A stretch of 64,000 bases of DNA from Haliotis rufescens (Eukaryota), in NCBI RefSeq assembly GCF_023055435.1, contig NW_025963779.1, forward strand, positions 89,838,001-89,902,000, given 5' to 3'. Both the position numbers and the translations under genes were made by a program. Positions within the stretch are counted from its first letter, which is position 1. Every line of letters begins with the position of its first letter. The notes under the pieces were generated by a model. The model was not told where the DNA came from, made no database searches, and was given only the letters and a program-made list of their open reading frames with translations. Below, piece after piece: positions 129 through 56,104 of the stretch.

Positions 129-186
129 CCCCCTAATCTGTACCTACCACGTCATAACCATTCCTCATTGTGTTCTGTGTTTGCAG

Positions 187-331
187 AAGGCGGGCTGCCC
201 GGCCCTGGGGGAGGACAGAGGGTGCTGCCACTCGGTATTCCCCTCAGCGCAGCACAAAAAAAGAAACCTTCCGGCTCTGTTCTCCGAAGCTATTTCCCCG
301 AAACCTGGCTTTGGGAGCTGGAACAAGTGGG
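187..331 (+). CDS. A2M-like exon: bait-region-like segment + RSYFPETWLW
   Basis: ttgcag| ... GG|gtaggt; GGLPGPGGGQRVLPLGIPLSAAQKKKPSGSVLRSYFPETWLWELEQV. Confidence 0.9.
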
Positions 332-3300
332 GTAGGTTGTTACATGGTGTCTCTTACTGAAGATTAGAGTGAGTGATTTGGGTTAAAAGCCACCTTGAAC
401 AGTATTTCAGTTAGATCACGGCGTGGCAGCTTTGTATGGGTTGAAAGCCCGAATAAACATAACAAGGGAGAATCAGAGTTTCGAACCTATGATTTTAGGT
501 TTCTAAAACGACAGGGGCACCCGTGCCCTCATGAATATTGGACTTAAATCCATTCTTATTCTTCACCTTTGCTTTGACGTTATGAATTTAATGAAGCTTG
601 TCTATTCAGGTTCACAATTCCCACTTTGATGGCTACTGCTTAAAGCAAAGTGTTAAAGTGGTACTTACTTGTAACTATTTGTCAGGTCTGTATACAGCTC
701 CAATCCTTTTATGATCAACGTGAGCTTCACAGAACTTCATTGCAAGACTTCATCAATTTTATTGTGATGAAGTTGTAGTTCCCGTGCGTATATTGCAGTG
801 ACACAGGAGAGTTGGAACTGAGGAAGACTACCCCTCACACGATCACCCGCTGGGTCGGAAATACCATCTGCACCAGCCAGTCAGCGGGAGTTGGGGTGGC
901 TCCAATGACGTCATTGACAACCTTCCAGCCATTCTTCTTGAGTATACATCTCCCGTACGCTGCAGTCAGAGGGGAGAGGCTTCCACTCCATGTTACTATC
1001 TTCAACTACCTTGAGAAATGTCTGTATGTAAGTATTGTGGTAGCTGACTACATTGAGAAATGTCTGTATGTAAGTATTGTGGTAGCTGATTACCTTGAGA
1101 AATGTCTGTATGTAAGTATTATGGAGGCTGGCTACCTAGAGAAATGTCTGTATGAAAGTATTGTGGAGGCTGGCTACATTGAGAAATGTCTGTATGAAAG
1201 TATTATGGAGGCTGGCTACCTAGAGAAATGTCTGTATGAAAGTATTGTGGAGGCTGGCTACCTAGAGAAATGTCTGTATGTAAGTATTATGGAGGCTGGC
1301 TACCTAGAGAAATGTCTGTATGTAAGTATTGTGGAGGCTGGCTACCTAGAGAAATGTCTGTATGTAAGTATTGTGGAGGCTGACTACCTAGAGAAATGTC
1401 GGTATGTAAGTATTATGGAAGCTGACTACATTGAGAAATGTCTGTATGTAAGTATTGTGGAGGCTGACTACATTGAGAAATGTCTGTATGTAAGTATTGT
1501 GGTAGCTGACTACCTAGAGAAATGCCTGTATGTAAGTATTGTGGAGGCTGACTACCTAGAGAAATGTCTGTATGTAAGTATTGTGGAAGCTGACTACATT
1601 GAGAAATGTCTGTATGTAAGTATTATGGAGGCAGACTACCTAGAGAAATGTCTGTATGTAAGTATTGTGGAGGCTGGCTACCTAGAGAAATGCCTGTATG
1701 TAAGTATTGTGGAGGCTGACTACCTAGAGAAATGTCTGTATGTAAGTATTGTGGAAGCTGACTACATTGAGAAATGTCTGTATGTAAGTATTATGGAGGC
1801 AGACTACCTAGAGAAATGTCTGTATGTAAGTATTGTGGAGGTTGACTACCTTGAGAAATGTCTGTATGTAAGTATTATGGAGGCTGGCTACCTAGAGAAA
1901 TGTCTGTATGTAAATATTGCGGAGACCACCTGGGGTAGTCGATATATGACGGTGACATGCAAGCAGTCTTTTTTTAGTTATTTTGTATTTTAAAATATGA
2001 GTTCAAGAGTCACTGTGTGATCGTATAGGGACACCTTTAGTGCAGGTGATTCATGTTAAAAATGTTGTATTTTGTGAATAATGGAAACACTGAAGACGTA
2101 CTGTATCAAGGAGAAATGGCAGAGAGTCTTGGGTAGGAATAACATTATACGTTTTACACTCTCTTACCCAGGCTGTCTCAACAGACTGACAATATCTTGA
2201 CCTTGGAGTCAGGGTGGGGTGGTCGGTTGTGAGCGGGTGCTGGCATTCTAGTGGGGGTAAGGGTGGGCATGGATGGATATTTGTTCGATACAGAATATGT
2301 TAACGATCACCGCTTCAAGAGCCAGCGAACTTAGTTAAGAACACCCAGGATGTTCAACGAATATTTTGTTAGTGTAATACTCCAAATTGATGCGTGGCGT
2401 TGTCAGTGTCCCGTCATGTTACAGATGCAGGTGAACGTGGAGACGGGCGACGACATCACTCTGACAGTACGGGACCACCTCAAGCTTCCATTCTGTCTCT
2501 GTGGGGGCAAGAGTAAGACACAGAGCTACTACATCTCCGCGAAAGAAGTTGGAAAACTCCCAATTGTTGCCAGGGTGAGTGTACTGGTAACCTGGTAACA
2601 ATATATTAGAGTTAAATATACGCGAAATATGCGCAATAATTTTAATGTGAACCTTAAAGTTTAACAAATGTTCCACAATGACATTAATGTTCACATATTG
2701 TTCGTGAAGAAATTCGAATGTGAAGTGCCTGTATACGTGCACTAGAGTGTGTTGATTTGAAAAATTGGATGTTTTAGGCGGAAATAGTCCCCGGGACATG
2801 CGACAACAACATAGAACCTGACACGGAATACATAGGCCTTTCTGATGCTGTCAAGAGAGAGTTGTTTGTTAAGGCAAGTCTCTATAGTTGACCATACTGA
2901 GTATGAATACTGAAAAAAACATATCAAGTCAAGTTAATTAGGGCCTGTAAATTAAACATTAGTGAACATAAAATGTAATTTAAATAAACTATTTTATTCT
3001 TGCCTTCGATGAACACGATATCTGCTTCTTTCGCAGGTTGAGGGGGTGACACAAGAATATACCAAGAGTCTCTACATCTGTCCGAAAGGTAACAGTTTTT
3101 ACTGTCTTACATCTTTCCCAGACATAGATCAGGAAGAATATTTTGAAGTACAGTAAACTACGGTTATAACGAACACGCTTATAACGAACTGACGGATATA
3201 ACGAACTTACTTTTTTGTCCCGACTGTTTGCTGTAGTTATGCTGTATATATACTTATAACGAACTACGGTTATAACGAACTAAAATTAGTAGTCCCTTTG

Positions 3301-6300
3301 AGTTCGTTATAACCGTACTTTACTGTAATCTAACATTTCCCATGATATGTGTTCTCTATAGTTTATACTCAAATAACTAAATTCTTTAGTCACTGCTGCA
3401 TCAAGGTATCAGAACCCGTATATCATGGACACGTTTGTGCTTGTAGATTCTGACGTAACGAGGGAAGAGGTGGAACTGCCCTTGCCTGATGACATTGTGA
3501 GGGACTCCGCTAGAGGCCATGTATCTGTCATTGGTAGGTGTGCCATGTCACAGACGAAGACGACTTGTTTGATCAGCACACTTTTAGTGAGAGTATGGTT
3601 TAATGCCCTTGTAGCAATGTTTCAGCAATATCATGGCGGGGGACACCAAACGTGCACCTTTACATAGAGTAGGCACGAGTGTGAGCTAGGGCTGACTTGA
3701 TTGTAACTCCGGTTTGAACAGTACGCAAGTTACGGAATGTCGTCTCAGTGAGGTACGACAAACTAGAGTTCTCTTTAACTGTGGTGGGACTCACGCGTCC
3801 TATCGAGCTGACTGACCTGAATCAATCTTGGGGCGAATCTTGGAACGGAAACCTCAGTCAGAGGATATGCAGTCGTGTGCAGACGGGTTCTCTCAGCATT
3901 ATGACTTTTCATTACCTCTGAGATTTGTATATCGTGTGGTTCAGTTTTATATTAATGAGAAGAAGACTCCGGACTTCTCCCTACTGGTTAACAGGAGTCC
4001 TTGGACTTCTGGTCCTGTCAGTACACGACTTGAGTAATAAACGACTGGTGGTCGTTGTTTATCGTACAATTAAACACTGCAGGGAAAATAAACCATAACG
4101 GCGGTGTTTCATTATACCATAAAGAACGACCACGAGTCTTTCATTTCTTATATGAGATTTTGTATGTCTCTTAATGTTAATAGAATGTACAAGCTTCAAA
4201 GATATTTACCCGTATTTAAATCATGATGACTCCCTGAATACAGTCCTACCTCGGCAGTCGTAACAAGGGGGTTACGTTTGGTATTTCCCAGACAATTTTC
4301 ACGTCCATTTTATGTACCTTTTCTCCCAAAATTGACTTTGCAAACCTCTCCCACTTTTGGATGCGATCATTCGGCCATTGCGGTCATCTGCGATGCCCAG
4401 CTGCTTCTGTGGGGAACATCTTACTAGACACTTCCCTCTACGCCGTCATCAAGTTGCGAGCGCATGTTCGAATCTCCGGAAATGACGTCATGATAGAACA
4501 CGCTTCATTCTTCATTGTTCTTTGCGATTTTTCGCGTAGCTTTCTTACATACCGCCATAAACGATTGGGATATATTTGCACGTTAGCGGGAAGGACCTAT
4601 TTATACAAAACTAAAGCATTTCGTTATAGAGATGGTGTTGTTTACGTGATATGACTAAATAGGTCTCCCACCAAACTAATATCTAAACAACCAGGCAAAA
4701 GACAGTATGTTCTTGAAAATTAGGTTTAACCCCAAAAATGCAAATGCTATCTAAACTAGGTTGAAAACGGTAGCTGGAACACAGCACACTTAAGGTAAAA
4801 ACACAACTGTATCAAATACATCACCATGGAATAACCATTTCTTGTTTGTTTCGTTTTTAGCCAATATCAAACATGGGTGTGACCTTTCTTTTGCCCGGTA
4901 GTTTACTTGTCGGAGAGAGAATCCCTTTTGTCATGGAATCTAGATCGTTCATAACGAATTCCTCAAAGATTGAATAGTATTAAGTAGGCTTATCAAATAG
5001 TTATGAATTATGGCGTTGAATGGCATTGCAGGTGACATCATGGGACCAGCGCTGAGTAACCTTGACAACCTGGTCCAACTTCCGACCGGATGTGGCGAAC
5101 AGACGATGATCAGCTTCTCCCCCAACATCTACGTCCTCAAGTATCTGACCTTCACCTCCCAGCTGACTGACGAGATGAAACTTCTCTGTGAGAGATACAT
5201 GGAAATCGGTGAGAACTGTTTTCTGTAGAGGTGAAACGATACAGGGAGGTCACGATATGATACAAAGGTCATGATACGTATCGCGATATGCATATTTACG
5301 TCAAATCGCGTGGAAATGTCTTGACTATGAATATTTCAGAGCAGGTTGAAACGTAAAAGCTAGCTGTAGACACATGTTCGTTGCAGCTCGCTTTAGTAGT
5401 GAACTTTATTACAACACAATTTGCGAGTGTTGACTGAGTGTATCGTGAGTTCGCTTGAACGCCGTTGTTAAACAGTATTTGAGTATATGTGGTGTGTTAG
5501 TGTGATGGAAATCCCAGAGTGATGCAGGCGTTAGACGTTAACCATTTTGGTGCAACCCATGAGTTCGAGTGTTCGAGTCTGGTGCTGACAGACCAAGGAC
5601 CCTGGCCTGGCATCGGGTACAGGACATCGGGAACACAGTACAAGAGGATCCTGTCAGCAAAGGGGCACAACTCTTTACAGCACCGGATCACCCCTGACTC
5701 ATTGTGATATAGCCACAAGATTGCTCACCTGGATAATATTAAACCCCTGTCCTTAGCGATTCATTACTGTTACCATTCTTGATTAGCCTCCTGGGAATGC
5801 CGTCCAAATTGTAAGCTTGGTGCACCACGAATGGGCTATCCACGTTATGCTGAATGGTAGTTCTCTGTGAGATAGAATTGTGAAACAGAAGCATGCACTT
5901 TGGTCAGTGATGAATTTTACTGACATAACCTGAAGATAGTAGAGATAGAGTAGATGGTTCTCAGGTTACCCTGAACTGAACGATTCCACATCAGCAACAG
6001 CAGATACATCACTTACATCAGCTTACATGTAACAAACGGTCATTTTGCAACAGGCTACACCAGAGAACTGAACTACAGGCACGACGATGGCTCCTTCAGT
6101 GCATTTGGGAAGAGCGACGCCTCAGGCAGCACATGGCTCACGGCCTTCGTCGTTAAGTCGTTCGCCCAGGCCCAGCGCTTCATTTACATCGACCAAACCA
6201 ACCTGGCCACCAGTGTGTCCTTCCTCAAGTCCACCCGGATGGAGAACGGGTGTTTCCGGGAGGTGGGGAAAGTCTTCAGCTCCTACATGATGGGCGGGCT

Positions 6301-9300
6301 GGGGAAGGTGGACGGCGAGGATGATACTGCCCTCACAGCCTTCGTCGTTGTGGCGTTGTTGGAGGCCCGCGTGCCCCGTGATGTGAGTAGTATCTCTCTT
6401 ACACTTTGTCATTACTATACAGTGAGTGAGTGAGTATGGTTTTACGCCGCTTTTAGCAATATTCCAGCAATATCACGGCGGGGGACACCCCAAATGGGCT
6501 TCACACATTTTACCCATGTCGGGAATCGAACCCGGGTCTTCGGCGTGACGAGCGAACGCTTTAACCACTAGGCTACCCGACCGCCCCCATAACCATACAG
6601 ACTAGGAAGAGAATTTATTGATGTCAACTTCTTTATTATAAGGAACACAACGCAATTTCAAAATCAATTGGTTGTAAAATGAAACAGTTTTTCTCTCTAT
6701 TTATTAAGTTTTTCAAAAGAAGTACCAGATATGTTAATAATAGTGCATTAATCTGCATTATAGTGGAGCCATTTCGTGACAGATATAAGGTCAATTGTGC
6801 ACTTTGTGATAAATCCAATATGGCCGCCATGGAGAATGAAATTCTAGTATATCGCATGTGAGTGTCATCGTCAGGTCAATGTAACTTGAGCCATATGCTG
6901 AACGTGATGTGCCTGTGCAGGACCCTGTGTTGATGGCCGCCCTCAGGTGCCTGTCGCTGCAGCCCCGGGACGAGATGGACACCTACACTCTGACCCTCAC
7001 TGCCTACGCCCAGACTCTGAATGATCCCACCAGCCAGGCATCGGACGCAGTTATGACGGAACTCGACGCAAGGGTCATCTCTAACGGTAGGTCGAACCGT
7101 CACACAGAGCGATCTTAGCCCTAAGATGATGGTAACACCCATACTTTAACATAGGCTTACGGTAGTCGTCGCGCTGAGATCACTTTGTGGAATGGGGCCC
7201 AGTATTCCACTGTGGTACAGTAAACTACGGTTATAACGAACTCAAAGGGACTACTATTTTTAGTTCGTTATAACCGTAGTTCGTTATAAGCAAATATATA
7301 GCATAACTACAGCAAATAGTCGGGACTAAAAAGTTAGTTCGTTATATCCGTCAGTTCGTTATAAGCGTGTTCGTTATAACCGTAGTTTACTGTATTTACA
7401 ATACACTCGGCAGTGATAGAGATGCTGTACAGCAAGGAAACGGACTCGTTAAAAGTAACATAATTTCCCTAAATATGAAACCCAGACTGGAATAGTGACT
7501 CTCCACGGCGTTGTTTAAGGCGACACACTTGGATCAGATGATTGGTGATTGGGTGCTCATTCTATCAATCACTGTTTCTCTGGGTCAAATTCCATTATTT
7601 ACCTTAAACCTGTAGCTCTGATATTGCTGAATGCGGTTTAAACATGTCGACACTCACCTTTGAGAATATTTCAAACATTACGTTGGTAGTTTGCCTTATG
7701 GGATGATTCTGTTAATACAGTAATTACACATTTTGGTACAAACGTTTTCCCTCAGTTTCTATTCTCTGGAGGATACAATATATATCTGATACAGGAGAGC
7801 TGGGCTACTGGGGACGAGGTGGCTCCATGCCAGATGCTGTCAACACGTGGCACTACAGAACAGCACCGTCAGCAGAAATCGAGATGACGTCATATGGCCT
7901 GATGGCAACGTTGTTGTACTACCAGGACGGGGGCTTAGCTAAAGGGCAACCGATGATTATGTGGCTGTCGCAGCAGAGAAACTCCCTTGGAGGATTCGCA
8001 TCTACACAGGTAGGCATTGCATCTACACGGGTAGGTTTCACATCTACACAGTTAGGTTTCACATCTACACAGGTAGGTTTCACATCTACACAGGTAGGCG
8101 TCACATCTACACAGGTAGGGTTCACATCTACACAGGTAGGTTTCACATCTACACAAGTATGCATTGCATCCACACAGGTTTCTCATCTGCACAGATAGGT
8201 TTCACATCTACACAGGTAGGTTTAACATCTACACAGGTAGGTTTAACATCTACACAGGTAGGCTTCACATCTACACAGGTATGCATTGCATCCACACAGG
8301 TAGGTTTAACATCTACACAGGTAGGTTTAACATCTACACAGGTAGGCTTCACATCTACACAGGTATGCAGTGCATCTACACAGGTAGGTTTAACATCTAC
8401 ACAGGTAGGTTTAACATCTACACAGGTATGCAGTGCATCTATACAGGTAGGTTTCACATCTACACAGGTAGGTTTCACATCTACACAGGTATGCATTGGA
8501 TCTACACAGGTATGCATTGGATCTACACAGGTAGGTTTCACATCTTCACATGTAGGTTTCACATCTACACAGGTATGCATTGGATCTACACAGGTAGGTT
8601 TCACATCTACACAGGTAGGTTTCACATCTACACAGGTATGCATTGCATCTACACAGGTAGGTTTCACATCTACACAGGTAGGTAGGTTTCACATCTACAC
8701 AGGTAGGCATTGCATCTACGCAGGTATGCATTGCATCTACACAGGTATGCATTGGATCTACGCAGGTATGCATTGGATCTACTCAGGTAGGTTTCACATC
8801 TGCAGACTGTGCAGTATAATGTGGGGGTTATCAGAGTGCCGCAATGCTAAACGGTAGCTAATGGACACTGTACCTCACGGAGTCTGATGGGAAGGTTAGG
8901 CCAGTGGTTGTTACGAGACGGCTTGTAAGGAAAGGCTTATAAATTTCATAAGAACTGAGATTTCCCATCGATACAATGATCAAAGACCCACTAGTCGGGC
9001 ATGTTGACAAGATAACTGAATTCACAAAAAATCGTGTGCATGCCCTGTATGAACTACTTTTAACCATCGAAGTGAAAAGATATAACTAATACCTCCAGTT
9101 TCAAGGTAATCAGTTTTGACCTGGTTTGAGGAGTCTGTTTGAAACAGAGTCTGTGAACTCTGAACTATGGACATGGCTCCAGGAGTTATTTGTACAATTC
9201 GTCTTAGCTTCTTACAGGTTCAAAACAATTAAAACGAACTGGATACTATTTAATTACCTTCATATGAGCAATTTTTCGTTACAGGATACCGTCCTTGGCC

Positions 9301-12300
9301 TTCAGGCTATGGCCGAGTTCGCCAGCAAGACGTTCACTGGCAACGCCACTGACCTTAGCGTGACCTTCACCGGCAACAAGATGAGCCAGACATATGACAT
9401 CACCACGGGGGTGAACACACTGCTGCTCCAGAGGGCTCCCATCATGCATCTGCCCAACACACTCTCAGTCTCAACTAACGGTACAGGGTGTGCCTTGATA
9501 CAGGTCAGGCTCACTGTCGGAGGCTTTGTTCTGTAAACTCTATTAGTTATGCTTCCTCGGTTTTGTTTATTCTTGACGTTATCAGATTAAGACCAAACCA
9601 CACTGTTACAGTCAGAGAAAGATGGTAGACCATACACGATCCTAAACTAATTATGTAGAGTTATAATGGAGCCCGGTTCAGCAACTTAATGTGATAAGTT
9701 TTAACCTCTGGTATTGTCTGGGAAAGAATGGTGAGGTGAAATTGGGTTTAACGTCGCGTCCAAGATTATTGCACTTAAATAGCGACGTGTATGCAGGAGT
9801 GTGTGGCTGCTTGTACTGGTCCGGACTGATGCACATTTTATAGTGCTCACCCACTGAGATGCCATGCCACAGCAAATCATGAATACCCCACTCAAACACA
9901 GTGTACTGACTCTGAACCGACAAGTCCTTGTGTTCGCCCCTTAATGGGTAACAACAAGTACCATCTTTTAACGTCTATTGGTATGACGCGGCCAGGGGAT
10001 CGAACCCCGGACCTTCCGCTCTCCGGGCGGACGCTATTCCACTAGACCACGGAGGCGGTCCGTTTCGGAAAGAAAGGCAATTGGGCAGCACAAGTACACA
10101 GAAACATTAAAAAAACATCAACATGTAAATATAGTTAATTTGTCCTTTTGGTTTTGTTTCTAGGCTAATGTACAGTTTAACAAACTGCCCGAGAATCTGG
10201 GGATCAACAAACCTCTATTTAACCTCACTGTCGCCGTCAGAAGGTCAAGGACAAAGAGAAGTGATTGTGCCAGACGATCAATCAGGATATGTGTCAGGTA
10301 TGGCCTATGTAGTGTATCACTAGCACTGGTACTCCTTGAGTTAGTCACATACTTTGATCATAGGATTCACAGTGCTGTACTAATGCTACATGATTTCATG
10401 CCTTTCATCCAGCCGTCAGCCGTTTGAGATGGACGTCTGAAGTCCGAATTCAAAATTGTGATGTGACCAAAGAGGCAGTGGGGATAAAAGAGACAAATTA
10501 GGAATGTAATGTTTATTAATGTGAACAAAGACAATGTAAATGGCAACATACGCTTTCAGACAACAATGGTACGCCAAGACAGCCAACTCGAGACTGAGGA
10601 TGGTCCTATCAGAAACTGCATTTGGATTGTATCCATTATCAGTGCCTCATGGGCAACACAAACCATTTTGCATGTTTTGTATAACGACAGATGCTAAATA
10701 TTAAATTGTTGCTTTACGTCGCGTTAAGCAATTAATATTCCAGCTTTCTGCGTCTGCCAAAAGTCGGGCCAGGCAACCAGTGGTTGATATTATGATCACG
10801 GTCGGTGGACGATAACACGTTCCAGTCGGGAACATGGCCACCCGATCCAATTTTGGCATGTCGCGGGTCCCCACGGGGTGTCAGTAGAGAACGTATCCTG
10901 AACTGTGCATCCACTGTGGTCTCATAATGGCTCAAGTTTTATCACCACACCTGCATAGAGTTAAAACAATCGGTAACTACATACAGAGCCTCATTTAACC
11001 AACTGTTACTGATGTTTTACATGAATACTTACGCGTTTGACTTGACTGTAAGATCAGAACATATTTGGCATCCATGTCATTGTTTGGGTATTTTCAGTTT
11101 TATGGGTAAGAAGGACTTCAGCGCCGGGATGAGCATGTTGACAGTGAAAATGGTGACGGCTTGGACCCCAGTCCTCAACTCTTTGAAAGAGGTTGGTCGA
11201 TTATGTTGTTGTGAAAATACGAATACGAAAAAATTGTTTACGAATCCTGGTTATGAAACATGTTTTGTCAGCACTATACTCGTGCGCCTGGGTTGCCCAA
11301 CCCCTAAAAGACTTACACGCCGTAAATGATGTGATGCGGTGACAAAACTAAACTGACTCATTTGTGTTACAGCTTTAAACATGTCCCACTTACACGACAA
11401 ACCGGTAGTCGAATATGTTTCAGCCATCAAGTTTTGTATTTTGAATGTTTACTACACACAGTAAAATTGCTTACTGATTACGAGTTTAGAATGTAACTAA
11501 TGTATGTATTCATTGCACATTTCAGCTTGAGAGTGTTTTCCCTATATTGAGTATGAAGAAATACGAAAATGACGTCAAAAAGGGTTTAATAGCATTTTAT
11601 TTTGATGAGGTAAGCACAACTGATTCTTTATTGTCATACATGTTCAATATAAAATCCTATCTATTTGAAACAAAGAGACATAAATATATGGGGATTAAAT
11701 GGATTTGGATACTGCAATACGTAAAGTATTTATATTGAACATGTGTGCAACAAGTTAATAACATACGTGAGCATGCCTTGCCCAGCACGACTTCAGTCAG
11801 CCTGATTGTCCTGTACACCTGCTCCTCGTGGGGATCCAGGGTCAGAATCGGTTCTCAGGCAACTACAACGCGGATTGGGTGGCTAGAATATGAGACCTGG
11901 TTGATTGTGTGTCGTGTCAGGACCACGTGGTTTGAGCTACCAGCCTCCTGTTTGTCGCAAAGATATGCTACCCGACATCCTATTACTGGATTGTGTCTGA
12001 ACAACATTTACCCCCTCACACACCCAAGCTTACAAAGGCAAGGATGTTAACTGACTATTAAAGTGGAAACTGGACTTTTATAGTCAGTTAACGCCCTTGC
12101 CTCGGGAAGATGAATCACCCCTACAAATGCCTTTTTTCGATTTCAGCTTGACGTTAGAAAACGTTGTTTCGAGTTCGAACTTGAACAAGACCGTGACGTG
12201 GCTGTGTCGGACCCCAAGCCAGCAGAAATACAAGCCTACCAGTATTACGAAAAAGGTGATGCATCAAAGATCGTTTTCTTGATTACTAGTTATTCGGGCG

Positions 12301-15300
12301 ACCTCATGCTTGTCGTAAGAACTGACGAAAATGGGGATCGGGTGGTCATGCTCGTTGGTTGATTGTTCACCGTTCCGTGATGGAACGTTTGTTTTTGTAT
12401 GGCCCAGACTCGATTATTTATAGGCCACTGAATAAACAATATTGCTGATTGCGGCGTTGAGCAGCATTTATTCGCTCATTGACTTAACCTGTGGATCAGT
12501 AGGTTACCTCGCCGTCATATGGCTGAAATTATGCCAAAGCGGCGTGAAACCCAACTCCCACACTTCTGAAGGCAGTCATCGGGTGGGCCTCCAAGCGCTG
12601 CTTAATCTTAAGATGAGGCTTGCGTTTTCGCGATATTTAAGGGCAAGTAAATCTTAAATGGTAGTTAACATCAGTGACGTGTGCAGAATGAGACTTTCAT
12701 TGTGACATTTAAAGGTCACGTGGTACTTTAGGTCGTCCGGCTTTTAAGTATCACTCGATGGTTTTCTTTTTCAACTGGTCTGCTGAATGGTTATTGTCAA
12801 AGTTGTTTTTTTCCAGATGTTACGATAGTTAAATCCTACGAGATTAACACAACATGTGGAACTAAAGCTGAAATCCCCGATGAAACAACGGCGCCTCCTC
12901 TGTTGCCAGGGTCACCGATAGAGATTCAGAACAGAATAGGAAGTAAGATACAACAGCTAGTATAAAGTTTATTTTGTTGGACCGGAAACCAGTCTTTGGG
13001 GTGATAAAGCTGTGAACAGTTGAACTATTAACGAAAGACATTATCCCGTAACAATAACTGATGATCCGGAAATTTGATTTGTTAATCGGGACAGTTTTAC
13101 CGGGAACATCATCAGTCCAGAGTAAAGGGGTTTCACTGTACTCGGTGTACAATGTTAATTGTAGCAGATGGTGTATTTTTTGGTTTGTTGTATCTGAACA
13201 GTGTAAATTTATATATTTTCCTTCTCAGTTAGTGAATTCTCTTGTGGAAACATTTTTTTGCCAAAATATTTATATGTGTTAAATCTTATGTGTCAATCGA
13301 GATTGTCTGATTTACTAAAAAAAGCACATTGTATTTCAGGCGTGAACGACATGCCACCTCTTCCATCGCAGAAGGTTCGTTCTTTCCAGTCAAAGAATTA
13401 GCGTTTCAAATTGAAACAAAAACTACCAATATATTATTCTTTGAAGACGCGTCTTTCCATATAGTGAAGTTAATCTAGGGCGCATTGCAAGCCACGAATC
13501 GCTTTGAGTAAGCAAATTAATCGCTCATCCCGGGGTCTGCAACAGTTCGAAACGCTTTGTCACTCTTCCAAAATGGCGGCGCAACTACCACTTGGTTGCC
13601 TTGCCGTAATGAAGAACGTAATAGAAGAGGCTTGATGACGAACTGATGAAATTTATGACCACTTTGAAGTTGTGGCAGCTGCCTTTGCCCATTTCCCAGT
13701 TGATCGAGTCAAGAATTTCTTGTTCCACTTTTTTTTTGGTGTGAGAACGAAGCGACCTGTCAGCGATTGGCATGATTGCAAGCGGCTGAAAGTTAGCGTC
13801 CCGTTGTGAGGCGAATCGCTGTACATTGCTTGCAAGCGATTGGCGCTTTGCAACGCACCCCCAATTAAGGAAATGTTTTACTTTGTCGATACTTTTTTAA
13901 CTCTAAACAAATTTTTGCATATGATCCACATAAGGGTTGAATAACCCCAATATTTGCCTCTGTGACTCTCAGTGCTATCAACCCAAGCTTGCCGTAAAAG
14001 GCGACTATGCTTGTCGTAGGAGGCGACTAAAGGAATCAGGTGGTCAGGCTAGCTGACTTGGTTGATGCATGTCATCGTATCCAATTGCGTGGATCGATGC
14101 TCATTATGTCAGTATCTGGATTGTCTGGTCCAGACTCGATTATTTACAAACCACTGTCTTATAGCTGGAATATTGCTGAGTGCGGCGTTGAACAACAAAC
14201 AAACAAAGGTTTATCTTGTCTCCATTTTATTTTAGATGCAGGAGACGACGGGCTGCCCTGCTTGTATTAACGAGAAACCAGAAGATTTTGATCAATTAAT
14301 TTGTCAGTCAAGAGCAAGTAAGTGTGCAGTAAAACTATTCCTTCCCATGAGCTTTACGAAACATCAAAGAAAATACCTTCAACCTTTCGTTACATTTTCA
14401 AATAAAATATATCATACATGCCAAATTTAACAGCATCTAAACCCATATTATTCTTTGGCCCTCGTCTAATATGGTCAATTATATTGATTGGTCTATAACA
14501 TCTTAATAGTGCCTCTACAGTAAACGTTCCCTCCAGTGAATTGGTATTGTAAAAGAAGAATATTCAACTTCACCTTGATGAACCACTTGCACGGTGGGAC
14601 ACCCTGTTGTTCCGTGAGGCATTTTCTTGACTATGTCGGCAAGTGTTCCTTCGTGAGAGATTGGGGCTGAGAACAAAGGCCCCAAGCAACCTGTCCTTGC
14701 CGAAAGAGTCGACTGAATTGATCGGATGGTCCGGCTCCGTGACCTCGATTCATGTCATCATATCCCAGATGCGTGGATCGATGCTCACGATGTCAATCAC
14801 TGGATTGTCTGACCAATATGATTATTAACGGGCCATAGCCATATAGACAGAATATTTCTGTGCAGCTTTAAACAACAAACAAATCTTCGTGTGACTTATT
14901 GTATAGAGTTTTGCAATGACTTTTTTCTTCCTCTCCAGTTTATAAAGTTCAAGCAGGTCGAAATGGTAGAGCTTCCATGAAAATCAAAGCTGATCTCAGA
15001 ACTAGACGAAAGAAAAAAATAGACAAATTTGCAAGTTTCACTTTGGGGTCAGAGTGCCAGTGTGACCTTCTCAACCCTCCGAGTAAGTAGACACATCTTC
15101 ATGTCATCATGTGCCAAGATTCGTTGCTTGTGGGTTTGCCATTAGTATGATTGGTTTGTCTTTGCTTGAAAATATTTACAAATTGCGATATTTGAGAATT
15201 TCCTTCACATCGTAAATTAGCGAAAGTAAATCCTGTGTGTCTTTGGGGGGGGGGGGGGGGGGTAGGCCTGGCGGCTGTGTAGCTTAGTGGTGGAACACTG

Positions 15301-16564
15301 GGTACAAAACCCACAATGTCGCACCTGTTCTGTTTATTATTATTGCTGGAATACTGATAAAATTGGGGTACAACTACACTAATCTATTTTTAAGCGTATA
15401 TTTGTTTTTAACTAATGTTTCAAATCTGGTATGTGCAGATGAAAAGAAAAGAGGTAAGTTTGTTTTGTTATATCTGGTTTTGCTTCATATGAGATGTTGC
15501 TTTACTGTCCAGTATGTCCGTCAGTCCGTCAGTCGGGTGCACTCTACACTTGTCTCTGGATGTTTTCTAATGATGTCTGTGAAAATAGGTTTTCTACAGA
15601 ATTACAACAAACCATTCAATTTCTTTATTCTTTCAGACATAATGCTTGCTAACTGTAGTTTTGTTAAAGCTTTTCTTAGCATCATATCCACACAATAAGG
15701 AGGGAAAGACCTCATCTGTTTGTTTTCAAACCTTTGTTGATAATATCATGATTAAAGTAAATAAAGTACCATAAAATTGCTATACTGTGTAAACATGAAA
15801 CAAAATAGATTCACAAACTTTCGTGTTGGCATACATTAATACCAATACAACTACAATGCGATTTTGTAGGGGGCTCATAATCCTATATCATAACACTCAT
15901 AAACAGAAGTTACTTACAAATACTTGTCAAAAGTAATGTTCTTCTTGCTTGAAATCTCTATCTCCAGTTTCTTGAATATAGTCATATTTTGTAAGTACAA
16001 TATGCGTACGTCTATACTAACATGCCACAGAGAACTAGAACTGTGCCATCATATATCTCACCAAACTGGAACTAGCGGCCTATCCCATTAAGCCAATAAT
16101 GAACTCGTACTTAACTTGGTGTATGCATGTAATCTTGATTAAATCTATATAAAATATGAACTGAATTTCACCAAACAATATATATTCACGTTCACTGCAC
16201 GCTACTGGGTTCTATGGTCAATCTTGATGTTTGCACCAACAAAGTGTTTTTTTGTCATCATTCTACTAGACAACTAAAAACCTACACTGAGTGATGTCAT
16301 CTTTCATACAAACACTTGCCACAAAACACATGGCATATCAGTCTTTCTGCAAAGCCTGTTATAACTGTCGACTTATTTTCTCCAGTGCGCCGTCTGTTGA
16401 TTCTGTCCAACCGGGAGCAGTCATTGGTGCAGAGTGTCGATCCAGGGAGTGTTGGTCACGTGATTCACCTGGGCTCCAGTACCATTATTATTAACCTGGA
16501 CCGGAACCGGAAACTGGAGAAAGAGACCCGGAAGAAGGCCCGAAGTTGCAATCGCAGATCGTAG
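187..16564 (+). CDS. Alpha-2-macroglobulin-like thioester-containing protein (3' part; 5' exons lie upstream of the window) with C-terminal NTR-like domain
   Basis: 21 exons joined in consistent phase (2867 nt = 2 nt + 955 codons incl. stop): 187-331, 799-1027, 2425-2574, 2778-2873, 3037-3088, 3447-3533, 5032-5208, 6054-6382, 6921-7086, 7795-8009, 9285-9503, 10164-10297, 11098-11191, 11526-11609, 12147-12255, 12817-12942, 13340-13374, 14236-14317, 14939-15082, 15439-15453, 16386-16564. Motifs: RSYFPETWLW, FQPFFLSIHLPYAAVRGE, CLCGG, GCGEQ, DGSFSAFG, STWLTAFVVKSFAQA, EIEMTSY, GGFASTQDT, KPAEIQAYQYYE. Confidence 0.93.
799..1027 (+). CDS. A2M-like exon (MG6/MG7)
   Basis: ttgcag| ... TAT|gtaagt; PHTITRW...FQPFFLSIHLPYAAVRGERLPLHVTIFNYLEKCLY. 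Confidence 0.92.
1006..1922 (+). repeat. 42-bp minisatellite, 22 copies, made of exon end + splice donor
   Basis: CTACCTAGAGAAATGTCTGTAT|GTAAGTATTGTGGAGGCTGA; donor positions 1028+42n up to 1910. Confidence 0.97.
2425..2574 (+). CDS. A2M-like exon (MG7)
   Basis: ttacag| ... AGG|gtgagt; MQVNV...FCLCGGKSKT...GKLPIVAR. Confidence 0.88.
2778..2873 (+). CDS. A2M-like exon with GC donor
   Basis: ttttag| AEIVPGTCDNNIEPDTEYIGLSDAVKRELFVK |gcaagt; supplies the D.V.K.LLV segment expected before (P/V)EG. Confidence 0.85.
3037..3088 (+). CDS. A2M-like exon
   Basis: tcgcag| VEGVTQEYTKSLYICPK |gtaaca. Confidence 0.88.
3151..3325. mobile_element. 175-bp Tc1/mariner-pogo-type MITE
   Basis: TA|CAGTAAACTACGGTTATAACGAAC ... 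GTTCGTTATAACCGTACTTTACTG|TA. Confidence 0.9.
3447..3533 (+). CDS. A2M-like exon (CUB, first part)
   Basis: ttgtag| DSDVTREEVELPLPDDIVRDSARGHVSVI |gtaggt. Confidence 0.9.
5032..5208 (+). CDS. A2M-like thioester exon (GCGEQ at 5088-5102)
   Basis: [41 protein letters not shown]/GT boundaries. Confidence 0.96.
5225..5480. mobile_element. Non-autonomous DNA element (hAT-like), second copy at ~33660-33960
   Basis: GTATCGCGATATGCATATTTAC...ATTTCAGAGCAGGTT...TAGTAGTGAA shared by both copies. Confidence 0.55.
6054..6382 (+). CDS. A2M-like exon (thioester domain)
   Basis: GYTRELNYRHDDGSFSAFG...STWLTAFVVKSFAQA...GCFREVGKVFSSYMMGG...LTAFVVVALLEA. Confidence 0.95.
6421..6588 (-). mobile_element. tRNA-derived SINE family A, full length
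   Basis: minus strand: box A TAGCCTAGTGG, box B GGTTCGATTCC, tail GCTGGAATATTGCTAAAAGCGGCGTAAAAC + (TCAC)n; further pieces near 3588-3650, 28712-28812, 43400-43525, 45735-45803. Confidence 0.88.
6921..7086 (+). CDS. A2M-like exon (thioester domain)
   Basis: DPVLMAALRCL...DTYTLTLTAYAQTL; gtgcag| ... |gtaggt. Confidence 0.9.
7218..7392. mobile_element. 175-bp MITE, same family as 3151-3325, opposite orientation
   Basis: same TIRs and TA duplication; internal sequence is the reverse complement of the first copy. Confidence 0.9.
7795..8009 (+). CDS. A2M-like exon (thioester domain end)
   Basis: SAEIEMTSYGLMA...WLSQQRNSLGGFASTQ |gtaggc. Confidence 0.93.
7998..8805 (+). repeat. 21-bp minisatellite, ~38 copies, made of exon end + splice donor
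   Basis: CATCTACACAG|GTAGGTTTCA and GTATGCATTG variants. Confidence 0.97.
9285..9503 (+). CDS. A2M-like exon (CUB, second part)
   Basis: DTVLGLQAMAEF...LLLQR...GTGCALIQ. Confidence 0.92.
9735..10061 (-). mobile_element. tRNA-derived SINE family D (MetaSINE-like central domain)
   Basis: minus strand: TGGTCTAGTGG box A, GGTTCGATCCC box B, GTCATACCAATAGACGTTAAAAGATGGTAC; related fragment 61540-61640. Confidence 0.78.
10164..10297 (+). CDS. A2M-like exon (start of MG8)
   Basis: tttctag| ANVQFNKLP...FNLTVAVRRSRTKRSDCARRSIRICV |gtatgg. Confidence 0.88.
11098..11191 (+). CDS. A2M-like exon (MG8/receptor-binding)
   Basis: SFMGKKDFSAGMSMLTVKMVTAWTPVLNSLKE. Confidence 0.87.
11526..11609 (+). CDS. 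A2M-like exon (MG8)
   Basis: LESVFPILSMKKYENDVKKGLIAFYFDE |gtaagc. Confidence 0.87.
12147..12255 (+). CDS. A2M-like exon (MG8)
   Basis: LDVRKRCFEFELEQDRDVAVSDPKPAEIQAYQYYEK. Confidence 0.9.
12817..12942 (+). CDS. A2M-like exon (end of MG8 + Pro-rich linker)
   Basis: tttccag| DVTIVKSYEINTTCGTKAEIPDETTAPPLLPGSPIEIQNRIG |gtaaga. Confidence 0.82.
13340..13374 (+). CDS. A2M-like short linker exon
   Basis: atttcag| SVNDMPPLPSQK |gttcgt; converts phase 1 to phase 0 as the flanking exons require. Confidence 0.65.
13985..14207 (+). mobile_element. SINE-like family C (possibly Nin/Deu-domain type)
   Basis: TGCTTGTCGTA(A/G)GAGGCGACTAA core, GCTGGAATATTGCTGAGTGCGGCGTT tail + (AAAC)n; copies near 7530-7640, 10700-10870(-), 12305-12470, 14720-14882, 34745-34840. 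Confidence 0.75.
14236..14317 (+). CDS. NTR-like domain exon 1
   Basis: ttttag| MQETTGCPACINEKPEDFDQLICQSRA |gtaagt. Confidence 0.8.
14939..15082 (+). CDS. NTR-like domain exon 2
   Basis: long pyrimidine tract + ccag| IYKVQAG...GSECQCDLLNPP |gtaagt; open in the required phase. Confidence 0.8.
15439..15453 (+). CDS. 15-nt microexon (NEKKR)
   Basis: actaat branch-like motif at ~15411, gtgcag|ATGAAAAGAAAAGAG|gtaagt, phase 1-1. Confidence 0.6.
16386..16564 (+). CDS. Terminal exon, NTR-like domain C-terminus
   Basis: ttttctccag| VRRLLILSNREQ...STIIINLDRNRKLEKETRKKARSCNRRS*; AATAAA at 16833. Confidence 0.8.
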
Positions 16565-18116
16565 AAACTAAATCATCCCTGCTTTATACATAACATTGTT
16601 GGTTGAATGTCCGGGATGTCCGCTTTGTAAGTCAGCTGCTATCTATTGAAGATTATCACCAGTGTGCATTGATGCTGTGCATCTTCTTTGGGTAGTGAAG
16701 GGATGGTTTAAGAACTAAGTCACCATCATCTTTAACCCAATCCTGAATCTGGACAATGTCTAACAGCAAACAGACATTTATAGCATTTGAACAGGTAAAT
16801 CGCAAAAGTTAAGAATTCAGACGTTCTGTCTTAATAAACAAAAACAGATCATGTTCTTATTTTCCTATATTGTAAGACTGGAATGTATTGTGTGCAGTTT
16901 CTTGTGTGATATCTTAGGTGATCATTGAAATCAGAAAACTTCATCATTCACAAAGTGATCTTTAGTTCCATGGATCTTCAAAGCAAGAAAACATTATATC
17001 GTTTAACTTACATCAATTTAGTAATTTTGATATCTGTCTGATCTGCTTCAGCAAATAGATAACAGCTTTTCCTTTGCCAGCATAAAAGATCTTATGAAAA
17101 TGTAATCCTGCCATATTTGAATTTTAGGGCATTGTTGAAATACTTATTATCATCAAATATTATTAATATTCACATAAATTGTAGATTTGGTGATGAGAAG
17201 TCATTGTTGATATGACAGAAATTACAGTTTGTGTTTTAATTTGAATTTACATTCATACTCTTATTCCAAAATACCATTCCATTTCATCTACCACCTCCTT
17301 GTACATAGACTGTTTGATCTTTTTGACTCTAGTTTAGTGGCCAGTAGTTGAATTGTTATCGTTGTTTGGTATTACATGTATCTTATATTCATAGTAAAAA
17401 TATAGTTATGTGATTATGACGTATGTATATAATATATTATTAGTACACAACATATAATGGTGCAGTCCTTGCATTGTTCACCTTGCATACATCGAGTTAT
17501 TTGTACTTTTCTATTATTTCGTTGCACTATGTTGGTCGAGCTTAAATTTGAATTTGAAAAGTTTTGACAGTTTGGAGAGATGTAACCATGGTAACCTAAT
17601 GTCAACACTATGTGTACCTGTCATTCAAATTAATGAAAATAGGACTCATATTGACTTTATGAAAAAGAGCTACATTTATCAAAGCTGATCACTGGTTGAA
17701 TGACTAGAATCTCTGAGTGAATGAGTTAACTTGGTGAACCAGAGCATCATCTGAAAAAATATCAATAACTATATTTAAAGGATGATTTGTTTCTCTTCGA
17801 AACACGGAAGATACTGTGCTGACTGAGAGATGTTTCTTCTCGTACCTGGCAATGTGGTGGACAGCAGTGATCAGGTTTGATACAAAGATAATACCAAACA
17901 CACCTGGTTGTTTTACATGTATTACCTTCAGTGTCTCCATACATGAAATAAACAAATATTATTCCACTCTTGTGTTGTTGGTCTTGTTGGTGCCTTGATT
18001 CAAGATAATTCCTACAGTCAAACACTGTGATAAGTTCGAGGAATTCTGTTATGACAAGATATTCACAAATTTATGTTTCGTCAACAATTCAATATGTCCA
18101 TGGTTGGCTGTCATCG

Positions 18117-18242
18117 TCATGTATTCTGATCTGCAAAAATGAGTTCCAAGGCAGCCTGGATGTCTCCGCCTGTGGCATCCAGGGCTCTGCGGGCCAGGTT
18201 GTCGTCAGTGATGCCCATGTCCCGCAGTTGCTGCATCTGGGC
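18117..18242 (-). CDS. UBL7: UBL7 exon 10 (UBA domain, stop)
   Basis: AQMQQLRDMGITDDNLARRALDATGGDIQAALELIFADQNT*. Confidence 0.95.
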   Translation of the reverse strand, partial: AQMQQLRDMGITDDNLARRALDATGGDIQAALELIFADQNT

Positions 18243-21200
18243 CTGGCAACAAAACAACATACATACCGCATTAGTCCGTGTTCATACACTTGTCTGTGAG
18301 ACAGAAACTTATGACTTGCAAGAAGTCGGAAAATACTATTGAACCTTTACCTCATGATGAGCAGCTTTGTTGATTGAGTACCATTTAGATAAATACCAAC
18401 AGCTGATCAAGGCTAACCTTACACTTAAACACAAACTAAGGGATGCAACTCTGCACTTTGCAGTCCAGTTTGCTTTTGTGTGATGTTTAATGTATTCCAG
18501 ATATATCACGGCGGTCTGTAAATAATCAACTCTGGACCAGACAATCCAGTGAGTGACATCATGAGCATCGATCCATGCAATTGGGATACAATGACATGCA
18601 TCAACCAAGTCAGCAAGCCTGACCACCCAATCCTGTGAGTCTCCTTCTACGACAATCATAGTCGCCTTTTACGACAAGCATGGGTTGCTGAAGACCTATT
18701 CTACCCAGGATCTTCATGGTTCTATTCATCAAATGAGTAAACCATACTGTCTTGGTAAGATGACCCAATCAACCAAGTCACTGAGCCTGACCAGTGGATT
18801 CATAAAAGCATCTCTAACGAGAATTCGAACCCCGAATTTGCATTTAAAACATATAAATATTAAAGGCTGAGTACTTCACCTGACTGGTGAAGACATTTTA
18901 CCCCACACCATACAAACATCTATGGTGAGTTAAACAAAAATGGTGTAAAAAGAATCTGGGAAAAAGAAAAGAACAAGTATCTTCACAGCATCGTTTATGA
19001 CAATGATATTGAGTGCTAACTGTGATGCCTTGAGCAATCTTTGATCTATTCTCGGTCATTTCAGTCACACAAAAGTTTAAACCCTGTGCACATTCTAAAC
19101 TTTTTGTAAAATTTGATGTCTTTTTAGATGTTAAAATCAAAAGAATTCCAATAAATTCACAATGACTTGAACAAGATAAAATTTCTTCATAAGAAGTAAC
19201 CTGCATGCCAAGTTTCAGCTTCATTAGGGTAACTGACACACTAGTCAAATTGTCCAAAATGCTGACCCATCTGTCGTCTCTTTGGGCCTTCTTGAACACA
19301 TGTTGAACCTTTTCTCCAAAACCAACATGTGTAAGATGGTGAAACTTTGCATGGACCATCCTACTAACCTCCTAATATTGCTTGAAACATTTCATTTTAA
19401 GTCAAATTTGGTTTCCATGGCAACCACACGTGAAACCTACTTTTTGCCATTGATCCCCAAATGTATGCAGACGATCAGATGCAGCTTGGTGGCAGCCTAG
19501 TGTGCGTTGGGGTCACAGAGATGGCTTTCCAATTTGCACCTGCATTAATTTTTATTGACCATGTTCATCATGTACACTTTGGTTGCGCCAACTATTATGG
19601 TTGAATCAAGGTCATAATTAACATTATCATTAAAAATGGAACAGATGTGATAGGCCCCACTAGTAGTGAGTGAGTGAGTTGGGTTTAATGCAACTTTTAA
19701 CAGTATTCCAGTTATATCACGGCGTGTCAGCTTAATGTTGGAGTAAGGCCTGAAGTGATTGATGCAGGTCTGAGATGTTTACCACTTCAGTGAAACCCAC
19801 GAGCACGGGTATGGTGCTGACAAACCTAGAAACATAATCGGGCTGAACCGGGATTCGAACCCACAATCATAGGTTTCTGGCGTGCCCAAGGGACACAACT
19901 CTGCACAGCGAATTGCGGCGCCTTGGACTACTGGGCCACCCGTGCCCCACCCCACTACTAACTACACCAATACCACATTTCAATACATTTTGAAAAAAAG
20001 ATGACCAATTATTAGCCAAAATTGGATTGGTATTCTGAGGGCACTTTTTAGAGACACAATAGCTGAGATCATTTATGCAACGTTTCAGCTTCACAGGCCG
20101 TGTAGTTTCAGAGGCGATATCTAACATTGAACAAGAGTCATCCGAAGATGACATATCCCCCCGGTGTGGTATGTCGGTAAAGTGTGTGTACCTTCAAATG
20201 TATTTAGATTGGCAAGGAAATCTTTTTCCTTGATGCCAAAACCAGAAATATAATGAAGGTTATTAAATATTGGTTCATGTAGCTCACTTTCTGATGATCT
20301 TATTGTAATAACAATAACTTCGCAGATTCGCATATGAATAGCTCTGTAGTAGCCTCATGACACAAAGGCATAAAGAGAATGTACTAGATTATGTAGCTCA
20401 CATCATATATAGTATATGATATCAGTAAATAGTACACCTTAGAATAATATGTCAGGGGCTACAAATTAAAAAGATTAAAATCTATAAATAACAAACTGCA
20501 CTACTAGTGAACATGATTGACATGTGCATAAAGTTTGATGAATCTCTGTCGCATGGTTCAGAAGATATGCTCCAGACGAGGACATTACCCTAAGTTCATC
20601 AAATTTCAATTTAAATTGAAAAAAGAAAAAAAAAGAAAAAATCTGTTAATAGCAAAGGCACCACTACATAACCTGCTTGATAGGTGTCAAAACTTTTGAG
20701 AAGCTAGGTTCTACGGTTTAGGAAATATGCTCCAGACAAGAGCACTACCCTCAAATTTCCTAAGTTCATTATATTTCCATGGAAACGACAAAAATAAAAA
20801 ATTCTAAAAATCTCTAAATAGCAAAAGGCACTACTACTGAGCCTGATTGGTAAGTGTACAAAGTTTTGTGCAGCTAGGTTGTACGGTTTAGGAAATATGC
20901 TCCGGACAAACAATGATTACAGACGGACAGACGGACAGACAGACAGACGGTAGGACGGACGGACGGACTGACATACTGATGGCTATATCCCCCCGTCATT
21001 ATATGTCGGGGGGATAAAAATGGCATTGTCATGGAACTGAGAGAAATTTGTACAGACAACATAGCTGGGATCATTCAAACAAAGTTTCAGCTCCATAGTA
21101 AAAACGGGGTACCTGAAGGTCAAAGGGGAGGGGAGAGAGAGAGAGGAGTCCAGACCCCCGGTCCCCCCCCAACCTCTGGATTTACCTATGACCATAGCAG

Positions 21201-36880: not shown

Positions 36881-37072
36881 GTTTAGATGTGACGTCACAT
36901 GTACTATGGAATATAATTGGTTGGAACGTTTCATTGTACAATGCATGCTGGGATTTGTTGTTGTTTAGCAACTCCACGTGGTAGCAGCTTTCAATGACTG
37001 ACAGCGTGAATAGAGCGCGCTCACAATGATACTATAGATAGGGATAGGGAAACATGTAGCAGATCCCCAAAT
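36881..37072. promoter_or_regulatory. Probable bidirectional promoter/5' UTR region between UBL7 and the 295-aa ORF
   Basis: 192 bp between divergent ATGs; palindrome ATGTGACGTCACAT (CRE core) 36887-36900, ATTGG 36916-36920, GCATGCTGGGATTTGTTGT (ZNF143/ACTACA-like) 36943-36961, CCACGTGG E-box 36974-36981. Confidence 0.55.
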
Positions 37073-55757: not shown

Positions 55758-56104
55758 ACACTCAATGAACAACACACTGTTTAGGAATGATTCTTTTGGT
55801 GTCAAAGGAGTTGAGCAATTCAGCAATATCCTGCCGTCGTTACTACTGTGCAGGATAACCACTCGTGGTAAATAATATTGCATTCCCTTATTCGAGGTAA
55901 TGACTGTCAAAATAGGATCAGCTCGGCTATTGATAACAACATTGACTGAATTTGCAATAAACAAAAGTATTGTGAAATTAGTGTGTGTGACAATGAATCA
56001 TCAACACTTGACGTCCGTTGTTGATTCCAATCTACCTTTGACATTCCTTTGTACCAGAGTGATGACATGTACAATGATGCCATGTCTCACATACAACTGC
56101 CAAC

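Follow-up and report, generated by a model that had tools for sequence, protein, structure and literature searches.

Can an alpha-2-macroglobulin (A2M) end in the type of domain by which complement C3 is recognised? This question is raised by a 64,000-nucleotide stretch of the genome of the abalone Haliotis rufescens (assembly GCF_023055435.1, contig NW_025963779.1, positions 89,838,001 to 89,902,000 of the forward strand; hereafter the window), the plus strand of which holds the 3' part of an A2M gene with six exons, at 12817-16564, that prolong the protein beyond MG8. The original prediction, made from the letters alone, described an A2M-type protein with a C-terminal NTR module and took it for a chimera. 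In the available parts of PMC8089394, PMC9156758 and PMC8712716, the NTR-fold domain of complement, C345C, is treated as complement-specific, and these sources, together with the accessible text of PMC7016707, use it to split the family of thioester proteins (TEPs) into C3 and A2M groups. We find that the A2M-plus-NTR architecture is real, transcribed and ancient; it had been partly glimpsed before, and was not found named in the papers searched.

Gene model, transcripts and A2M core

Exons were assigned from AG/GT ends and reading frame. All six are AG/GT-bounded and stay in a single frame up to the stop codon at 16562-16564 (Table 1), and the last of them has one match in the abalone's own genome. 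The 955-residue window model (with exon 2778-2873 added) is identical throughout to residues 807-1761 of XP_046354853.2, the H. rufescens RefSeq alpha-2-macroglobulin-like protein. As predicted, the tail follows MG8, with the correction that the first part of exon 12817 still encodes the last MG8 strand; this is succeeded by a Pro-rich linker of ~40 residues and then by a tail of 139 residues.

Transcription was assessed with contigs from four sequencing runs (four studies) aligned to window positions 9000-18000; the RNA status of the runs was guessed by the search tool, and it is the spliced joins that serve as evidence. Among the matches listed, the joins 12255/12817, 13374/14236, 14317/14939 and that from 15082 to the last exon were present in all four runs, as was 12942/13340 (exact in two, with two variant letters in two); minor short forms may exist besides. 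The microexon 15439-15453 was placed between its flanks in two runs, and the direct join was also seen in one; RefSeq isoforms X1 and X2 differ in this microexon, so that both forms are annotated. In one run (X6), all these joints have a depth of 225, which is the depth of one 5,125-nt contig and therefore suggests that a single contig spans the gene from CUB to tail. Many joints have only 25-33 letters on their short side, and the contigs give no expression levels. A splice artefact was considered and rejected: skipping of exon 13340-13374 (stop 11 codons on) or use of a donor at 12911 leads to an early stop, and the observed joins follow the long frame. The exons foreseen at 12817-16564 are joined in transcripts, which do not end before 14236, the one amendment to the predicted chain being that the microexon is alternative.

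The core is A2M by descent, in agreement with the original proposal. Pfam recognised MG2-4, the bait-region domain, A2M, TED and A2M_recep on the full protein, with MG1 only at E 0.08, and gave neither an ANATO nor an NTR match. When solved structures were ranked by sequence against the core, A2ML1 (708 bits) and A2M (697) came first, followed by CD109 (519), TEP1 (299) and C3 (263), and the core model of an orthologue aligned with A2ML1 at Z 44.9, the order of MG1-8, CUB and TED being kept. Against four gastropod C3s, both the Cys-rich anaphylatoxin (ANA) insert, in the place of which stands a short Cys-free segment, and the alpha-gamma insert are missing, and Ser1194 aligns with the catalytic His of C3, expected ~110 residues past the thioester; Ser at this position is reported for mollusc A2M (section 12 of PMC7016707, in the part available). 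In a tree of 32 cores (one CD109, no vertebrate A2M, root not inferred), the abalone protein joined Biomphalaria A2M in a gastropod group (100/100), adjoined by bivalve and cephalopod A2Ms and with Cristaria A2M on the A2M side, and the six C3s formed a separate group (100/100), which rules out a grouping of the core with C3. Among C3-type features, the ANA domain behind a tetra-basic beta-alpha site, the catalytic His and the Cys-rich anchor are absent, and the C-terminal NTR-fold domain is present. The gene is an ordinary molluscan A2M orthologue of the group of Biomphalaria glabrata A2M (BgA2M); it is a variant, since the domain-based definition in the available part of PMC7016707 has A2M ending at MG8 without C345C/NTR.

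Cysteine pattern and predicted fold of the tail

The tail starts at the Met at 14236 and has Cys at its positions 7, 10, 23, 67, 69 and 135. The motifs and the six-Cys pattern quoted in the original prediction are all present, except that KKARSC, which does contain the last Cys, is followed by four further residues and is not the terminus. The six Cys are invariant in nine of nine aligned gastropod tails, and so are not due to chance. Over 46 extracted tails (some near-copies; hit P0101 was left out, its Cys pattern not being found), exactly six Cys occur in 43, extra Cys in two and a missing last Cys in one, with spacings of 2, 12-17, 40-47, 1 and 47-69 in the family. With 30 Lys and Arg against 15 Asp and Glu, a pI of 10.1 and a net charge of +16, the abalone tail merits its first description as very basic, which does not extend to the 46 tails in general (net charge -6 to +28).

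The AlphaFold model of the tail (pLDDT 81, pTM 0.78) is a five-strand OB-type barrel with N- and C-terminal helices. In a structure search of 48,161 chains, the 12 best matches were all NTR-fold proteins or close kin. The tail matched C345C of C3 at Z 9.9 (root-mean-square deviation (rmsd) 3.4 Å, 118 residues aligned), C4 at Z 9.8 and C5 at Z 8.4; a hookworm secreted protein (7.3), PCOLCE1 (7.0), TIMP3 (5.9), Sizzled (5.9) and agrin (5.8) came next, and general OB folds scored lower. Nearly all Foldseek matches (best E 3.4e-3) were to C345C, TIMP, PCOLCE and Sizzled; the top ESM Atlas matches were NTR clusters at 0.87, under the tool's 0.9 mark and taken as a lead only, and searches of PDB sequences with the tail and the tail profile gave nothing meaningful. 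For 12 of 13 other NTR sequences, the score with the tail profile exceeded those of all 200 Cys-fixed shuffles. The Pfam NTR profile (PF01759) matched three of nine orthologous gastropod tails (best E 6.4e-5), and its cut-off of 21.9 bits was passed by a sea cucumber fragment with 24.9 bits and by abalone C3 itself with only 23.2. The 3' end of the first NTR exon, five codons past Cys3, is a phase-1 intron, and a phase-1 intron at the start of the first strand past Cys3 is found in this gene, its paralog, abalone C3, netrin, sFRP1/2/5 and sFRP3/4-like genes. In a 955-residue model of an orthologue, core and tail both fold well, with the linker at pLDDT <60 and the position of the tail not fixed. 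The modelled structure bears out the NTR fold first proposed for the tail, and we consider it almost certain that the protein combines an A2M with a true NTR fold; complement is probably not alone in having a tail of this kind.

Distribution, inheritance and origin of the tail

A profile search of 1.84 billion representative sequences returned 81 hits, 34 of which also carry A2M core sequence, most of the others being short fragments or other architectures. Named A2Ms with the tail belong to Argopecten, Cristaria, Mactra, Argonauta, Sepia, Lottia, Watersipora, Tachypleus, Lasioglossum, Megachile, Ischnura and Holothuria; the tail also occurs on a second Haliotis A2M, preceded by three Ig domains, and two Ixodes A2Ms match the tail profile. 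The bearers comprise gastropods, bivalves, cephalopods, a bryozoan, chelicerates, insects and a sea cucumber. None of the 20 named hits is called C3, and no name among them points to a cnidarian or a chordate; at least two low-ranked hits (P0075 and P0088) are without the cysteines and look false. Pairwise tail identity ranges from 79% (H. asinina) down to ~26% (arthropods, sea cucumber), and the linker, not conserved outside Haliotis, may hold 1-3 Ig domains in the 18 A2Ms where it was measurable.

Separate phylogenies of core and tail agree broadly. The tail tree groups arthropods (93/82), bivalves (97/94) and the paralog with Lottia (85/72), and pairs Littorina with Babylonia and the two Haliotis species with one another, in each case as in the core tree. 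This agreement argues for an old architecture and not for an abalone chimera; the original prediction was too narrow in scope here, since the same tail is found across protostomes and on an echinoderm. Judging from these sequences, core and tail were very probably inherited together, by old vertical descent from an early bilaterian A2M, and tail-less A2Ms, e.g. those of vertebrates, would have lost the tail.

The same NTR subfamily was also observed on non-TEP proteins of Parasteatoda (six stretches plus Kunitz), a Hyalomma tick (five stretches) and Lineus (one after many Kunitz), and Pfam names none of these NTRs. A protein of Holothuria leucospilota that bears the name A2M, and has GCGEQ, the NTR tail and an Ig-like domain, lies outside C3 in the core tree; echinoderms are said to lack A2M in the accessible part of PMC10381214.

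Two accounts of where the tail came from have to be weighed: tail and complement C345C may descend from one NTR that ended the ancestral thioester protein and was lost by most A2M-group lineages, or an early bilaterian A2M may have captured a mobile NTR exon set apart from C3, from an sFRP/netrin-like or an Ig/Kunitz-inhibitor gene. Common descent agrees with the same place of the domain after MG8 in both subfamilies, and the best structures are C345C domains (Z 8.1-10.2 among the 50 matches listed, non-complement NTRs reaching at most 7.3), although the PDB is rich in C345C chains and poor in other NTRs. The six-Cys layout recurs in gastropod C3, and the abalone A2M paralog and C3 both have a phase-1 intron that lies two codons ahead of Cys1; however, a non-TEP NTR gene has this intron too, the tail lacks the two internal introns of C3, and C3 in turn lacks the tail intron after Cys5. 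Sequence profiles mildly favour the other side. The tail profile gave 21.3 bits for abalone netrin and 20.3, in effect a tie, for sFRP1/2/5, against 9.0-18.1 for nine C3 tails, and HHalign gave 85% for sFRP1/2/5 against 5-37% for three single C3 tails, with a profile-profile probability of only 48% for gastropod C345C; the bit differences are small and come from single donor sequences of one genome. Separate capture is also in keeping with the occurrence of this NTR subfamily on multi-Kunitz proteins (nemertean, spider) and in multiple copies on a tick protein, with Ig-NTR cassettes in three named A2M groups, with the later introns that differ from those of C3, and with the lack of an anchor: the region here has 1 Cys in 66 residues, and A2M linkers measure 39-431 residues, against a fixed 40 residues with 4 Cys in three of three C3s. 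The lack of any hit named C3 among the 20 named of 81 likewise speaks against common descent, but capture requires that two sister subfamilies each gained an NTR independently, and at the same end.

Approximately unbiased (AU) tests rejected neither the C345C-linked placement (p 0.53) nor that for separate capture (p 0.49), and the NTR tree, in which A2M tails stand on a separate side from other NTRs (90/90, with a long-branch warning), cannot decide. The indicators of origin to which the original prediction appealed are accordingly mixed, structures favouring C345C and sequence profiles leaning towards sFRP1/2/5 and netrin. Its specific argument, which read the CxxC start as a sign of sFRP and not of C345C, was abandoned: nine of nine gastropod C3 tails share the layout C-x2-C...C...C-x-C...C, with spacings of 2, 16, 53, 1 and 69-71. 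We give separate capture an even chance, and regard descent from one ancestral NTR as a tentative possibility that falls short of this. Equally tentative is the wider idea that C345C predates complement, the ancestral thioester protein of animals having ended in an NTR that was kept, unrecognised, on mollusc, arthropod and echinoderm A2Ms and lost in vertebrate A2M; if true, A2M-NTR proteins would stand between protease traps and C3 as living intermediates.

Proposed function, genomic setting and related systems

A2Ms trap proteases, and by analogy the abalone core likely does as other A2Ms do. Taken as a whole, the evidence is best explained, we hold with moderate confidence, by a molluscan A2M, likely a secreted protease trap, that has a linker-tethered NTR-fold docking handle. 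When the bait of human A2ML1 is cleaved, the thioester becomes exposed and MG8 is released (PMC9156758, in the part available). The same cleavage in the abalone protein would expose the thioester and free MG8, which would swing out with its NTR; loosely linked behind MG8, the NTR could therefore reach partners. It could then bind a surface or a partner, which might be a clearance receptor or, for the basic forms of gastropods, matrix or sulfated glycans; the bound NTR would localise the inhibitor or its protease complex. A loosely tethered docking module is, by such analogies, a rather probable role of the tail; a glycan as its ligand is a more doubtful proposal, plausible only for basic forms. 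The C-terminal NTR of PCPE-1 acts through heparin, according to the accessible text of PMC2871463.

The metalloprotease inhibition that the original prediction had considered is unlikely, and the tail is most improbable as a second, TIMP-like active-site inhibitor: the TIMP N-domain shares the fold (Z 5.2-5.9), and Kunitz-type inhibitor proteins are further bearers of the module, but TIMP activity needs an N-terminal Cys, and the PCPE-1 NTR is non-inhibitory even starting at that Cys (same part of PMC2871463). The abalone tail is internal, behind ~1,620 residues and with no free N-terminal Cys, has a C-x2-C start, and its residues before Cys1 are not conserved. An unlikely, though less remote, role is that of a C345C-like platform for a factor-B-type protease, or of an A2M oligomerisation domain, to which the structural likeness to C345C and the binding of complement proteases by complement C-terminal domains (PMC9156758, part) would lend themselves; yet there is no anchor to fix the tail, linker length varies tenfold, and the abalone genome has its own C3. 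In a caenogastropod-like orthologue model, C3 and C5 alignments go from ~6 to ~20 Å rmsd when the tail is included, which weakly suggests, the linker being poorly predicted, that the modelled tail is not placed where C345C sits.

Several points weigh against an old A2M with a docking NTR. The fold is a prediction, from a model built on nine sequences; Foldseek gave no match at E<=0.001, and PF01759 had none on the whole protein, the tail or single tail exons, so that profiles recover the A2M half of the original domain assignment here and the NTR half on three of nine orthologues. Names could be given to 20 of the 80 new hits. In the tail tree, 16 of 38 inner branches are open and molluscan tails are not one group; the deuterostome case is one sea cucumber cluster with two members; and the core tree is without vertebrate, cnidarian or tail-less invertebrate A2Ms, so that tail loss is presumed. 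Several of the arthropod tails and some of the bivalve ones are neutral or acidic; basicity is not conserved, and glycan binding can therefore not be the role of the family at large. The tails of gastropod C3 are basic as well (+6 to +17), and charge may therefore be a lineage trait.

Table 1 Parts of the abalone A2M gene in the window
Feature	Position	Strand	Evidence
A2M exon with bait region and start of post-bait segment (FPETW motif), without anaphylatoxin domain	186..331	+	
MG6 end, MG7, first CUB half	799..3533; exons 799-1027, 2425-2574, 2778-2873, 3037-3088, 3447-3533	+	PF00207 E 2e-20 on exon 800-1027; RefSeq identity
Thioester domain	5032..8009; exons 5032-5208, 6054-6382, 6921-7086, 7795-8009	+	PF07678; C3 alignment
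GCGEQ thioester motif; Ser at catalytic His position of thioester domain	5088-5102	+	
Second CUB half and MG8	9285..12255; exons 9285-9503, 10164-10297, 11098-11191, 11526-11609, 12147-12255	+	PF07677; spliced joins
Last MG8 strand with terminal Cys, then start of Pro-rich linker	12817..12942	+	Frame, joins, alignment
Linker exon of 35 nt, required for frame into tail	13340..13374	+	Frame; joins
NTR exon 1: Cys1 14254-14256, Cys2 14263-14265, Cys3 14302-14304	14236..14317	+	
NTR exon 2: barrel strands, basic loop, Cys4 15055-15057, Cys5 15061-15063	14939..15082	+	
Alternative 15-nt microexon, adding five mostly charged residues in NTR loop	15439..15453	+	Contigs; RefSeq X1/X2
NTR exon 3: last strands, C-terminal helix, Cys6 16547-16549, stop	16386..16564	+	
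Likely 3' untranslated region	16565..18000	+	Contigs of one run extend from last exon to at least 18000

Two tandem arrays lie within the gene, at window positions 1005-1924 (42 nt x 21.9) and 7991-8801 (21 nt x 38.6); both begin at exon ends and repeat the last exon codons and the donor site in frame, and the repeated donors could insert peptide repeats into MG7 or TED. A furin-type RTKR site (window ~10230-10262) follows the first MG8 strand in both Haliotis sequences aligned; it is near the position of the gastropod C3 alpha-gamma insert and not in the other molluscan A2Ms aligned, and cleavage there would yield an MG8-NTR chain. In the adjoining upstream DNA (contig 89828001-89838000, positions 117-1769), an open frame extends from an MG5-region exon past an RRKR site and encodes ~430 acidic, repetitive residues, which are the N-terminus of RefSeq isoform X3 (an alternative form or an annotation artefact).

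Tail-to-tail with the A2M gene, on the minus strand at 18120-36964, is a gene with ubiquitin-like and UBA exons, presumably UBL7-like, the last exon of which lies just past the A2M 3' region. Beside its first exon there is a long lysine-rich open frame without Pfam match (37010-37957, plus strand), and long minisatellite arrays with open repeat frames at 26100-28500 and 52900-55800 are probably non-coding. Genome-wide, TED exon matches number 79. Contig C1 (20.01-20.12 Mb) holds two further tandem A2M genes, each with Ig domains and an NTR tail and with His, not Ser, at the catalytic site; contig C583 (34.67-34.90, 7.26-7.44 and 5.63-5.73 Mb) holds tandem clusters of near-identical TEP/CD109-type genes; and two divergent TEP loci with C3-like MG7 exons are found on contigs C594 (52.75 Mb; seemingly without thioester motif) and C35 (4.16 Mb). 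Two weak TED loci on contig C79 were discarded as C3 candidates, as their thioester motif is non-canonical and they look MCR-like; a C3_CUB2 search of the genome gave no match, with the control likewise silent.

In the open literature searched, we found no paper naming an NTR on an invertebrate A2M, and subscription journals, figures or supplements could hold one. None is named in the available parts of PMC11312191, PMC8960428, PMC8995041, PMC10381214, PMC6641155 and 10.1101/010942, and that of PMC12939704, in which C345C/NTR is not mentioned, models invertebrate A2Ms on human templates. UniRef already gives the Lottia member the automatic label 'NTR domain-containing protein'. An NTR-fold domain on the A2Ms of at least four phyla weakens the rule that C345C means complement only and reopens the form of the ancestral thioester protein; a weak NTR match on an invertebrate TEP does not make it C3.

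The nearest known systems are other molluscan A2Ms (BgA2M, Cristaria plicata B5ACH4, Littorina), which have an orthologous core, GCGEQ, the catalytic Ser and the same six-Cys tail. BgA2M, which has the highest expression among the TEPs of the schistosome vector snail (PMC7016707, in part), is given only standard A2M domains in the accessible text of PMC7016707 and PMC9363628, where C345C is assigned to C3-like proteins; its deposited sequence carries the tail, and the domain is present on this snail's A2M as well as on tick and bee A2Ms. For the Pteromalus A2M PpSPI55, the available part of PMC5691223 reports a 'cysteine-rich C-terminal extension' of unpredictable function, absent from other insects. 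Bee A2Ms end in the module described here, and the PpSPI55 extension, compared by its description, is probably the same feature; in contrast to that account, an NTR fold is assigned here and the module is found also in damselfly, chelicerates and molluscs, so that an unexplained cysteine-rich extension gains a fold and testable roles.

Human A2M and A2ML1, the best core matches in both sequence and structure, share MG1-8, the bait region, CUB and TED with the abalone protein but end at MG8 (chains of 1436-1474 residues, matched almost to their ends), whereas the abalone protein is ~175 residues longer. Complement C3, C4 and C5 likewise have a TEP core followed by a C-terminal NTR-fold domain, and the tail of invertebrate C3 agrees with the abalone one in its six-Cys layout and first intron; unlike them, abalone A2M has no ANA, catalytic His, anchor or alpha-gamma insert, belongs to a separate clade and differs in its later introns, and the Cys3-Cys4 spacing is 40-47 in A2M tails against 53 in C3. 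The NTRs of sFRP1/2/5, netrin, PCOLCE and TIMP share the fold, the six-Cys layout and the phase-1 intron after Cys3, from which the A2M tail departs by a Cys3-Cys4 segment ~10 residues shorter and an extra intron after Cys5.

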